From Anaerolineales bacterium (GTDB lineage Bacteria; Chloroflexota; Anaerolineae; Anaerolineales; UBA6663): DNA of 29,518 bases. The stretch covers positions 1 through 29,518 of the forward strand of contig JAYUUW010000081.1 of the NCBI GenBank assembly GCA_043754665.1, written 5' to 3'. Under the pieces are notes generated by a model that searched no databases, had not been told where the DNA came from, and was given only the letters and a program-made list of their open reading frames with translations. Below, in pieces: positions 4,070 through 7,000 of the stretch; positions within the stretch are counted from its first letter, which is position 1, and each line of letters opens with the position of its first letter. The position numbers and the translations under genes are program-made.

Positions 4070-7000
4070 CTACAGCCCGGCGGCCGGCGGCGTGCTGCCC
4101 GGTGCCGGCCCGCCGAGTGACTTGCCGCCGCCCGGCGTATCCGGCTTCTTCTCGTCGTCCTGCTTTTCTTCCTGCGACTGCCCGCCGTCCGCGTCCAGCG
4201 CTCGGATGGCGCCCGAAATCAGGTGCGAGCTGGCGTCTTGGATGACCAGCAGCTTGCCTTGGATAAGCAGGTACGACTGCGTGGCGGCGTAGTTGGCCGG
4301 CAGCTTGGCCAGCCCGGTCTCCTTGGTCAGCGCGCCGTGCGCCTCGTACAGCACCTGCCGGAAGTCGCCGATGGCCGCTTGCATTTCAGTCTGGATCGCC
4401 TCGCCCTCGCCTTGCAGCGCCAGCCGTTCTTGCAACGTCATGACCTTCACGGCCGGGTCGCCGGCGGCCTTTTGCCCGAGCTTGGCCAGCGAGTCGGCGT
4501 CGCCCTTGGCTTGCAGCAGCCAGGTATCAAACTTATCGGCCAGCGCCTCAAACCGCGCCTGGCTCGGGATCTTGAGGCTCACCGCCAGGCCGTCTTTGCC
4601 GAACTCAGCCGAGAAGCGCCCACCGTACTTGCCCACCGACTTGATCGCCCCGGCTACCTCGGCCACTTGCCCGGCCGGGTTCATGCCTTGAGCGGCGTGG
4701 AACAGTTTGAGCGCGTTGTCGAGCATGGCCGATAGGCGCTGCGGCACGTCCATGGCCGGGGCCGTACCGCCGGGGCCAAAGTCGCCCACCTTCTCGCGCT
4801 CGGTCACCTCGCGCCGCACGCCGCCGCCGGTGAAGTAGCCGCCGCCCTCGCTCTGGTTGATCTTCGCGCCCCGGTCGGAGATTTGCTCGATCAGGCTGGC
4901 TTGCTGCCCCGCGTCGGTGGTCTTCAGCAGTTCCTGCTGGAGTTTGTCGATGTCGGCTTGGAACGCGGCCACCTCCGCCTTGCTGATGGTCTTGACCTCC
5001 ACGATGCCGACGTTGGCCGACTTCATCATGTCCTTGACCACCTGCTGGGTGGCCTCGTCGCCGCTCGCCACCGCGTCCTGGAACATCAGGTTGAGCATCA
5101 TTTCCTGCTCTTTGCGCGCCTGCGAGGCCGACAGCTTGGCGCGCAGTTCGGGCGCCAGTTGGTCGAGCAGGTGCATCCGGCGCGGGTCGGTGAAGAAGTC
5201 GGCATACAGCAGCATTTGCAGCCGGCCAGGGTCCACGCCGGCGCGGCCCGCCATGAACGACCGCGCCTGGTCGCGGTGCTCCGACGACAGGCTGCCCAGC
5301 GACGACATATCGAGGTCGCTGCCGAAGCTGCCCTGCGAGCCGGTGCGCCTGAAGTTCTCCAGTTCGCCGGGGTCGAGGTCCAGGCCGTTGATGTAGGCTT
5401 GCAGGTCCTGCCACAAGCTATTGCGCCAGGCGTTCAGCCGCTGCCCCGCCGCCGACTGGTTGCCCAGCGTCAGCGAGAGCTTCTGCCAGCCGCCGCACTG
5501 CGTCAGCACGTCTTTCGGCCCCAGCAGGTCAATCGCCTGGCTGACGATCTGATCCGCTTCTTCGCGCGTGATCTTCTGTTCGGCCAGGTCAACCGCCATG
5601 GTCGCCAGCTTGCCGCTCACCGACTTGGAGCCGCCGGCCTTCATCGCTTCCAGGTAGGCCTTCAGGCGGGCGTAGGCCGGCGAGTCGGCCGGGATGGTGT
5701 ACAGCAGGTCCTCGGCCGAACGCCCGCTCTTGGAGACCGCCTCGGCCACGCCCAGTTCGTTGATGGCCCGCTCGGCGATCTGGGCCTGCTCGGCTTTGGG
5801 CAGCCGGTCGAGCTCCTTGATGCCGGGGTACGCCCGCCCAGCCGCGCCCATGCCTTCCAGCAGGTCTTTGGGCCGAATGATCTTGCTGCGGAAGGTCTTG
5901 CCCGCGCCGTACAGGTCGATCAGCGCGGCGGCGGTGTTGATGATGGCCTCGACCAAGACCGCCGAAATTTGTTCCTTGGTAACCAGTTCGGTGCCGGTCT
6001 TCACGGCGGTTTGGGCCGCCGTGGTCATGTCGTCGTACTTCTCCCAACTCATGGCCGCTGGTGCGGCGCTGGCCCCCACGCCGATCATAAGTGGGATCAG
6101 CGTCGCCAACCCGCCCGAGGCGAACTCGGCCACCAGGAAGGCGATCATCGCCGCACCGCCCAGCAGGTTGCTAATTAGTTCCTCATTGGCCTGGTAATCG
6201 GCCATGATGAACTTGCGCTGGGCCATCTTGGTGAACGGCTTGTCCCACGGCACGCCCGACGCGCCCGGCCCGCCCATGATCTGGTGGTGGATGGGCAGCA
6301 GGTCACGGTGGTCGAGGTCGTCTTCTGAGATGGCCTTGATCGTCTGGAGGATGTGCTCGTCCACTTGCGTGAACGACTCCATGATCTGGTTGCGGCCCTC
6401 TTCCGGCGTGGCCGTGGGGAAGTCCTTGATCTTGCCGCTGACCATCAGCGCGTACAGCGCCGGGTTCTCGTCGGTGATCTTGCCCATCACGATGCCCAGC
6501 TCGTCGTACTGCTTCTTCACCACGGCCCAGTGCGCCATCTTGACGCCCGGCTCGTTGTCAAACGGTTGGAAGGGCGGGGCGCTCGGGTCAAAGTGGGCGA
6601 TCTCGCGGTCCTCGTCGCCTTCCTCGCCCTGGCCGTACATGGCCGGCTTCATGCCCGACCAGCCTACGGCAATTGTCGACAACTTGGCCTGTTGGTCTTG
6701 GGCTTGCAGCAGCAATTCAGCGATCTTCTGCTGCTCCTCGATCTTGGCTTGGGCCGCGGCGGCCTGCGTCGGACCCGGCGCGGTGGGGTCGTTCTGCTCC
6801 GGCGCGGCCAGGCGCTGCGCCTCCTGCGCCACGAAGTCGTGGTTGCTGTTGAGGTGGCCGAGGGCCACGCCCTTCACATCGCTCTTGAACTTGGCCTCCA
6901 GCGCCGCCACCTCGGGGATGGCCTTGGGGTTCGCGCCGTTCTCAATCGCCTGCTCGAACAGCGCCGCCCAGTTGGCGTCCAGGTTCCAAATGCCCGCGCC

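Follow-up and report, generated by a model that had tools for sequence, protein, structure and literature searches.

The locus described here raises the question of what the last conserved domain of a giant contractile injection system (CIS) cargo protein does. The left half of a 29,518-nt stretch of DNA from an Anaerolineales bacterium (contig JAYUUW010000081.1; hereafter the window, meaning the whole stretch analyzed) is a CIS locus, encoded entirely on the minus strand, and it contains the gene for a 2283-residue cargo polyprotein, P0001, whose last 1100 residues are without any match in Pfam and NCBIfam. A first-pass annotation regarded this end of the protein as the payload of the system, assigned it to the Pol-beta superfamily of nucleotidyltransferases (NTases) and conjectured a toxin that would nucleotidylate its target or make a second messenger. 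Our analysis points to a CIS-delivered, membrane-tethered, metal-dependent enzyme that forms the end domain of a tape-measure-like scaffold, a reading to which we assign a probability of about one half. What is new here is a CIS effector with an uncharacterized end domain, such effectors being already known as a kind, and a search among papers in which contractile injection systems, nucleotidyltransferase and effectors are mentioned yielded no description of the P0001 domain.

One scaffold, several end domains

P0001 is composed, in this order, of a leader, a first scaffold, a kinase-like region, an eCIS_core domain, a DUF922-like region, a second scaffold, the C-terminal domain and a tail (Table 1); the DUF922 match is weak (Pfam, aa 1067-1156, E 0.006). 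Hydrophobic hairpins can be read directly from the sequence in two places, at about aa 430-500 and in the second scaffold. A PHROG tape-measure match is obtained for the first scaffold only at a weak level (E 0.0016, aa 418-510), and the second scaffold has none. The tail is kept in close relatives only, P0005 and a few others extending past aa 2130.

The relation between the two scaffolds is established by A4, the profile of the scaffold upstream of the domain, which recovers the first module of P0001 with E 5.9e-24; BLASTP is nearly blind to this likeness (E 0.045). Each of the two homologous scaffolds precedes a different downstream domain, the first being followed by the kinase-like region. 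The same profile also matches two proteins encoded in other genomes. In G311, a protein of 736 aa from start to stop (L077, G311:C2, ORF 1420-3630) is matched with E 1e-122 and ends in another domain, about 220 aa long, and this genome is without a match to the P0001 C-terminal domain. In G377, the match to a protein of 766 aa (L079, G377:C98, ORF 916-3216; E 1.6e-11) is followed by a HExxH region with a zincin-like HESIH motif. Neither end domain has a match in Pfam; that of G311 is possibly PD-(D/E)xK-like, judged from an IDVVV...AIELKS pattern alone. The occurrence of one scaffold with several end domains implies that these are interchangeable on a common delivery scaffold, which is the logic of polymorphic toxins. 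With this exchange and the surrounding CIS locus in support, the C-terminal domain of P0001 is very probably a payload module, as the first-pass annotation had proposed, and it has the appearance of a catalytic one.

The domain itself is closely tied to the scaffold. The second scaffold lies directly before the domain and accompanies it in 19 of the 19 full-length homologues or loci compared, including 16 loci inspected with tblastn. As a whole, aa 1230-2150 correspond by homology to standalone proteins that measure about 1050-1150 aa in full length and carry no Pfam domain, and BLASTP aligns the second scaffold with the N-terminal halves of such homologues at E 8e-61 and 1e-62. Nearly all of 22 standalone N-termini inspected have a leader centered on GN (consensus LQRxxGNxAV), and in most of them a hydrophobic-Gln-Arg motif comes after it at a distance of no more than about 10-25 residues; the PVQRF motif at the start of the domain-bearing module of P0001 is the same motif. 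These similarities suggest that the P0001 module looks like a standalone cargo gene fused behind DUF4157, and the hydrophobic-Gln-Arg motif may be a processing site.

Conserved motifs and predicted structure of the domain

An exhaustive HMMER search with aa 1720-2283 against 1.8 billion representatives of clusters at 50% identity returned 158 cluster representatives at E <=0.001, 70 of which were found at <=1e-30; a word-index homologue search gave 7 matches for the domain and none for the scaffold. The peptides on which the first-pass annotation relied are present, in frame and at or near the places assigned to them, in the 2283-residue minus-strand open reading frame (ORF), and the numbering of D1869, D1871 and D1908 is right. 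Positions 5309-5341 encode the core of motif I, GSQGSFGSDLD; LLYADFF corresponds to aa 1904-1910, with the D1908 codon at 5198-5200, and EGGGYFTGGGVRREV to aa 2025-2039 (4805-4849).

The bare pattern hG[GST]-x5-13-Dh[DE]h turns up in 19% of shuffled P0001 sequences, hence the motif alone is not significant; it carries weight because it is conserved across the family. In an alignment of about 120 homologues, conservation amounts to 91% for T1860, 96% for G1861, 87% for the Ser or Thr that follows, and 97% for each of D1869 and D1871. The near-invariant positions comprise G1801, GGW1810-1812 and W1832-R1833; T1860-G1861-[TS], [NS]-D1869-x-D1871-[IVM]-S-x-L-G1876, R1893 and G1895; F1910 and D1912-P1913-x-R1915-x-H1917; and D1992, Q2018, N2022, Y2029, G2033, V2039, R2042, K2098 and R2102.

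When built on an alignment of 82 homologous sequences, the AlphaFold2 (AF2) model of the domain is confident, with a predicted local distance difference test (pLDDT) score of 90.8 and a predicted template modeling (pTM) score of 0.88; the single-sequence prediction of aa 1780-2250 is all-helical at pLDDT 44 and useless. The model is largely helical and has just three strands, all short, at aa 1857-1860 (FRRT), 1870-1874 (LDMSS) and 1907-1910 (ADFF), which are residues 78-81, 91-95 and 128-131 in the numbering of the model. Along the chain, a helix is followed by strand 1, a 9-residue TGS loop, strand 2 (DLDM), two helices, strand 3 (ADF) and a helix opening with DPRRMH. D1871 is located on strand 2 and D1869 just before it, and in P0001 the sequence A-D1908-F lies on strand 3. 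According to Kuchta et al. 2009 (PMC2794190), the minimal NTase fold has a mixed sheet of three strands with four helices at its sides; hG[GS] opens the second helix, which is short, strand 2 carries [DE]h[DE]h, and strand 3, its neighbour, carries h[DE]h. The order of elements in our model agrees with this definition except for the second helix, and the [DE]h[DE]h element occurs on the second core strand as D1869-L-D1871-M.

Possible nucleotidyl transfer and the competing explanations

The core of the domain looks like a stripped-down Pol-beta-type NTase core that lacks the second helix, and for this reason nucleotidyl transfer would be the single most likely chemistry, at odds a little short of even; that the domain is a true relative of the NTase fold is equally tentative. 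Profile comparison offers a local signal in this direction. With hhalign, the core alignment A2 was compared with alignments of 21 MNT-type (PF01909) and 20 AbiEii (PF08843) proteins from related genomes, giving Prob 25% and P 8e-4 for MNT, with 1 of 100 shuffles scoring as high, and Prob 27% and P 7e-4 for AbiEii, with 1 of 200 shuffles as high. The A2 matches span the DxD strand and the helix that follows, within a Prob range of 20-27%. As controls, MNT against AbiEii gave Prob 0.3% and P 0.2, and the scaffold profile against both NTase families Prob 0.2-0.3% and P 0.2-0.24. Since each column-shuffle set contains one outlier (scores 134 and 136), the empirical p is only about 0.005-0.01; the signal exceeds the controls, yet it is weak and far from proof, and it does not fix the equivalence of the G[GS] element. 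The MNT and AbiEii families fail against each other too, so that a failed similarity test of the domain is itself weak evidence. In the shape search of the ESM Atlas, NTP_transf_2/Polbeta accounts for three of the ten family sets shown, with TM by hit of 0.32, 0.34 and 0.49 over 123-139 aligned residues, all under the usual line of 0.5; the feature search of the same resource returned matches at noise level only. Membership in AbiEii/MenT was considered and rejected, PF08843 being unmatched in the domain, in its family and in the whole of the organism's own genome, and no small partner gene adjoining the cargo gene.

A number of observations weigh against an NTase payload. In the predicted structure, the second core helix is missing and a 9-residue loop takes its place; TG[ST] comes directly after strand 1 without a helix behind it, and the residue before it is Thr, not hydrophobic. 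The spacing between G[ST] and DxD is 6 residues. In NTases, 9-13 residues are typical. Of the three Asp residues proposed in the first-pass annotation, D1869 and D1871 are conserved and the third is poorly so. At position 1908, Asp accounts for only 49% of homologues and the two acidic residues together for 63%, a share that becomes 76% when an acid at either 1906 or 1908 is accepted; the conserved residue is D1912 (93%). This copy, moreover, has Gly at aa 2018 (GGC, 4868-4870), where 117 of 121 homologues (97%), including a 74%-identical orthologue of a related genus, have Gln; the substitution may impair this copy or may be an artefact of the consensus of a metagenome-assembled genome (MAG).

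The database searches point the same way. Foldseek against the PDB (best E 0.36), AFDB clusters (best E 0.32) and AFDB Swiss-Prot (best E 0.59), and VIA-align (wide and second look), gave no significant match to NTases or to any fold, and the best Foldseek matches never covered the strand-bearing part of the model. No NTase match was found in Pfam or NCBIfam with P0001, or in Pfam with the 82 alignment members, which gave scattered weak matches only; one of these, to DUF6525 (best E 5.5e-4), occurs in 8 members. Sequence searches of the PDB with P0001 and with the profiles of the domain and of its core returned no NTase and no plausible relative, and a search of PHROGs with the domain returned nothing. 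The hhalign matches are restricted to 33-43 columns around DxD, with the G[GS] element inconsistently aligned. With respect to gene context, the ORF list has no small immunity-like ORF between P0001 and the Pvc16_N gene, standalone copies of the family are placed among housekeeping genes, and no conserved immunity-like gene is found beside the orphan copies.

The Pol-beta assignment is upheld only in part. Judged from the model, P0001 would have in common with Pol-beta-like NTases (PMC2794190; MNT PF01909, AbiEii/MenT PF08843) a three-stranded core between helices and, in this copy, the order G[ST]/DhDh/hDh on or next to these strands; to this comes the profile likeness around the DxD strand (hhalign P ~1e-3), to which the weak Atlas neighbours may be added. 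It departs from them in the absent helix, the shorter spacing, the third carboxylate that varies within the family, a large helical extension with conserved motifs of its own, and the absence of an antitoxin partner; the structure prediction yielded a confident model with an NTase-like order of elements, and fold, Pfam and PDB searches with the domain gave no significant match.

The strongest alternative is a metal-dependent enzyme whose fold is new and has no relation to that of Pol-beta NTases (e.g., a phosphodiesterase, a phosphatase, a pyrophosphate-handling enzyme or a DxD-type transferase), in which the NTase-like order would have arisen by convergence. For all its confidence, the model lacks a significant neighbour in the PDB, AFDB or Swiss-Prot, the domain is mostly helical, and none of the conserved residues H1917, D1992, Q2018, N2022, Y2029, K2098 and R2102 belongs to an NTase motif; furthermore, the carboxylate of strand 3 is not conserved, whereas D1912 at the start of the helix is. 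We nevertheless regard this alternative as unlikely, if a serious contender, given the agreement of the element order with the minimal NTase description, the local hhalign signal to two NTase families above both shuffled and scaffold controls, and the recurrence of NTase proteins among the Atlas shape neighbours.

A still less probable explanation is that the domain is a non-catalytic structural or translocation part, such as a plug of the tube lumen, a helper in membrane insertion or pore formation, or a binding module, with the conserved residues serving folding or binding. This would fit the constant company of scaffold and hairpin in all 19 cases, the internal position of the domain in some giant proteins with further eCIS_core or toxin domains behind it, and the absence of an immunity gene; D1912-P could be a helix cap, and a precedent exists in Sle1, whose helical C-terminal region modulates physiology without known enzymatic activity (PMC13277306). 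However, near-invariant Asp, His, Arg, Lys, Gln and Asn residues as closely set as here, together with Gly-rich loops, are typical of active sites, and the scaffold bears other end domains as well, which makes the scaffold, and not this domain, the generic part of delivery. A chance occurrence of the motif in a helical region without function, for which the frequency of the bare pattern in shuffles and the low-confidence, all-helical single-sequence model might be adduced, is rejected as practically excluded, being contradicted by 91-97% conservation of the key residues across about 120 homologues of several phyla and by their placement on strands at pLDDT >90 in the alignment-based model.

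An enzyme remains the preferred reading, and a DxD metal site in it is probable. Loading, membrane tethering, catalysis, chemistry, toxicity and target are inferred, and the mechanism that we propose is the following. P0001 would be loaded into the CIS by means of its leader and DUF4157 parts and ejected upon contraction of the sheath, and the hairpin would tether the module to a membrane, where the domain, as an enzyme dependent on a divalent metal, would act on a substrate that is a nucleotide or bears phosphate. The candidate active site would unite the TG[ST]-loop-DxD hairpin and strand 3 together with D1908/D1912-P-x-R-x-H, to which are added the loop GGGY-x-x-GGG and the conserved basic residues (Arg and Lys).

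Family, locus and comparison with known CIS effectors

The named loci of the family are found in Anaerolineales, Promineifilaceae, Ardenticatenaceae, Caldilineaceae, Actinomycetota (including Enemella), Portibacter (Bacteroidota) and a Proteobacteria MAG. The distribution is patchy, with members in 2 of 40 relatives and in 3 of 400 genomes of a phylum sample. Of the eleven named loci, five either have eCIS genes around them or are fused to eCIS_core, and the other six are orphans. The CIS marker Pvc16_N occurs in 6 of 6 genomes that have the family, which represent about three independent lineages, versus 75 of 400 genomes in the phylum sample.

In giant proteins of Portibacter (e.g., WP_235296047.1), the cargo unit lies between eCIS_core domains. 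Those of P. marinus and P. lacus (L047 and L048; P0031 and P0038) are 2596-2887 aa long, and in each of them cargo units are interspersed among three eCIS_core domains; in P0031 of P. marinus another eCIS_core domain comes immediately after the cargo unit. Two paralogous copies, with ORFs of 1130 and 1087 aa, are present at G387:C1:1765921-1774655 (L040-L042) within 12 kb of a Pvc16_N gene, and in the metagenomic protein P0074 (2749 aa) the domain is internal (aa 877-1303), with an Ntox4 toxin domain at the C-terminus.

Table 1 Features of P0001 and its locus (window coordinates; residue numbers refer to P0001)
Feature	Residues	Position	Strand	Basis
Tube gene, same CIS locus		3-281	-	
Sheath gene, same CIS locus		1426-2985	-	
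Pvc16_N (tail terminator-like) gene, directly downstream of P0001		3154-3972	-	Pfam
CIS cargo polyprotein gene P0001, 2283 aa		4070-10921	-	ORF list and translation
C-terminal tail, Gly/Pro/Lys-rich low-complexity end	2131-2283	4073-4531	-	Alignment occupancy falls past aa 2130
C-terminal domain, conserved, uncharacterized, enzyme-like	1780-2130	4532-5584	-	HMMER, conservation, AF2
Motif V, GKYGGR, K2098 and R2102 (near-)invariant	2097-2102	4616-4633	-	
Motif IV, consensus xQAxINAxEGGGYFSGGGVRRxV[ST]ER, Gly-rich loop running into helix	2016-2043	4793-4876	-	
Motif II, LLYADFFTDPRRMH, strand 3 with variable D1908, then D1912, P1913, R1915 and H1917 opening a helix	1904-1917	5171-5212	-	
Motif I, RRTGSQGSFGSDLDMS, strand 1, 9-residue loop beginning TGS, D1869-L-D1871-M on strand 2	1858-1873	5303-5350	-	
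Scaffold 2, helical, with hydrophobic hairpin at aa 1585-1625 (6047-6169)	1290-1730	5732-7054	-	BLASTP, tblastn, profile A4
PVQRF motif at start of domain-bearing module	1229-1238	~7208-7237	-	
eCIS_core (DUF4157) HExxH domain, between the two modules	863-940	8102-8335	-	Pfam PF13699, E 8e-27
Scaffold 1, diverged relative to scaffold 2, followed by kinase-like region	187-555	9257-10363	-	Scaffold-2 profile A4, E 5.9e-24
Second eCIS_core/DUF4157 protein, 1048 aa, upstream		10940-14086	-	PF13699, E 1.3e-26
AAA+ ATPase gene, upstream of cargo genes		14102-16246	-	Pfam

The P0001 gene is bordered by the AAA ATPase and eCIS_core genes upstream and by the Pvc16_N, sheath and tube genes downstream, and the same synteny around the cargo gene is seen in a related genus. 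The 1048-aa neighbour was considered as a relative of the P0001 C-terminal domain and rejected, there being no similarity between the two. On further contigs of the same genome (C181, C775, C222 and C763) there are two more Pvc16_N matches, one of them with an in-frame TGA, and two more eCIS_core proteins; the genome probably has more than one CIS locus or extra orphan cargo. The right half of the window (16709-29516) contains ordinary genes for a histone-deacetylase-family protein, a TrmI/GCD14-like methyltransferase, a LysM-M23 peptidase, two LysM proteins, an APH-like kinase and an HD-domain protein.

By description, P0001 resembles Tme (BN159_7576) of Streptomyces davawensis (PMC11126660), likewise a giant cargo protein of a CIS locus (2247 aa, compared with 2283 aa in P0001); both would combine DUF4157 with helices predicted to cross the membrane, with regions of helical or tape-measure-like character and, at the C-terminus, with a functional domain. 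The end domain of Tme, however, is an EndA-like DRGH/HNN endonuclease, whereas that of P0001 is an unrelated DxD domain, and P0001 in addition has two scaffold-plus-domain modules around an internal DUF4157. The Sle1/Sle2-type CIS effectors of Actinobacteria (PMC13277306), also compared by description, resemble P0001, as far as its hairpin is predicted to span a membrane, in a hairpin of this kind and a helical region at the N-terminus, and also in C-terminal regions that vary among homologues, a DUF4157 partner, a gene near the sheath gene and, often, the lack of an immunity gene. Unlike P0001, the Sle1 polypeptide is itself without DUF4157, and no catalytic motif is reported for its C-terminal region. 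With the toxins associated with extracellular CIS (eCIS) described by Geller et al. 2021 (PMC8213781), which bear DUF4157 at the N-terminus, P0001 has in common a DUF4157 placed ahead of a functional domain, a very long linker between the two and an eCIS operon, but its domain is outside the predicted functions listed there, and the long 'linker' is here a conserved scaffold with a hairpin.

To our knowledge, most CIS cargo proteins are without known activity, and few end domains of DUF4157/tape-measure-like effectors have been characterized. The domain described here belongs to a well-populated family, with 158 clusters in Chloroflexota, Actinomycetota, Bacteroidota and a Proteobacteria MAG, and it offers a confident predicted structure and a clear candidate active site without a known relative. 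It is conceivable, if somewhat doubtful, that the domain founds an unrecognized enzyme family, either with an extremely reduced NTase core, lacking the second helix, to which a new nucleotide-binding lobe of helices is fused, or with a fold that is new altogether; CIS in at least four phyla would deliver it on a membrane-inserting, tape-measure-like scaffold, and it would nucleotidylate a target or produce a nucleotide signal at the membrane of the recipient. If active, the domain would extend CIS biology by a new chemistry of toxins or modulators, and perhaps the NTases by a new minimal branch. The scaffold that bears several end domains provides a practical means of finding more CIS payloads.

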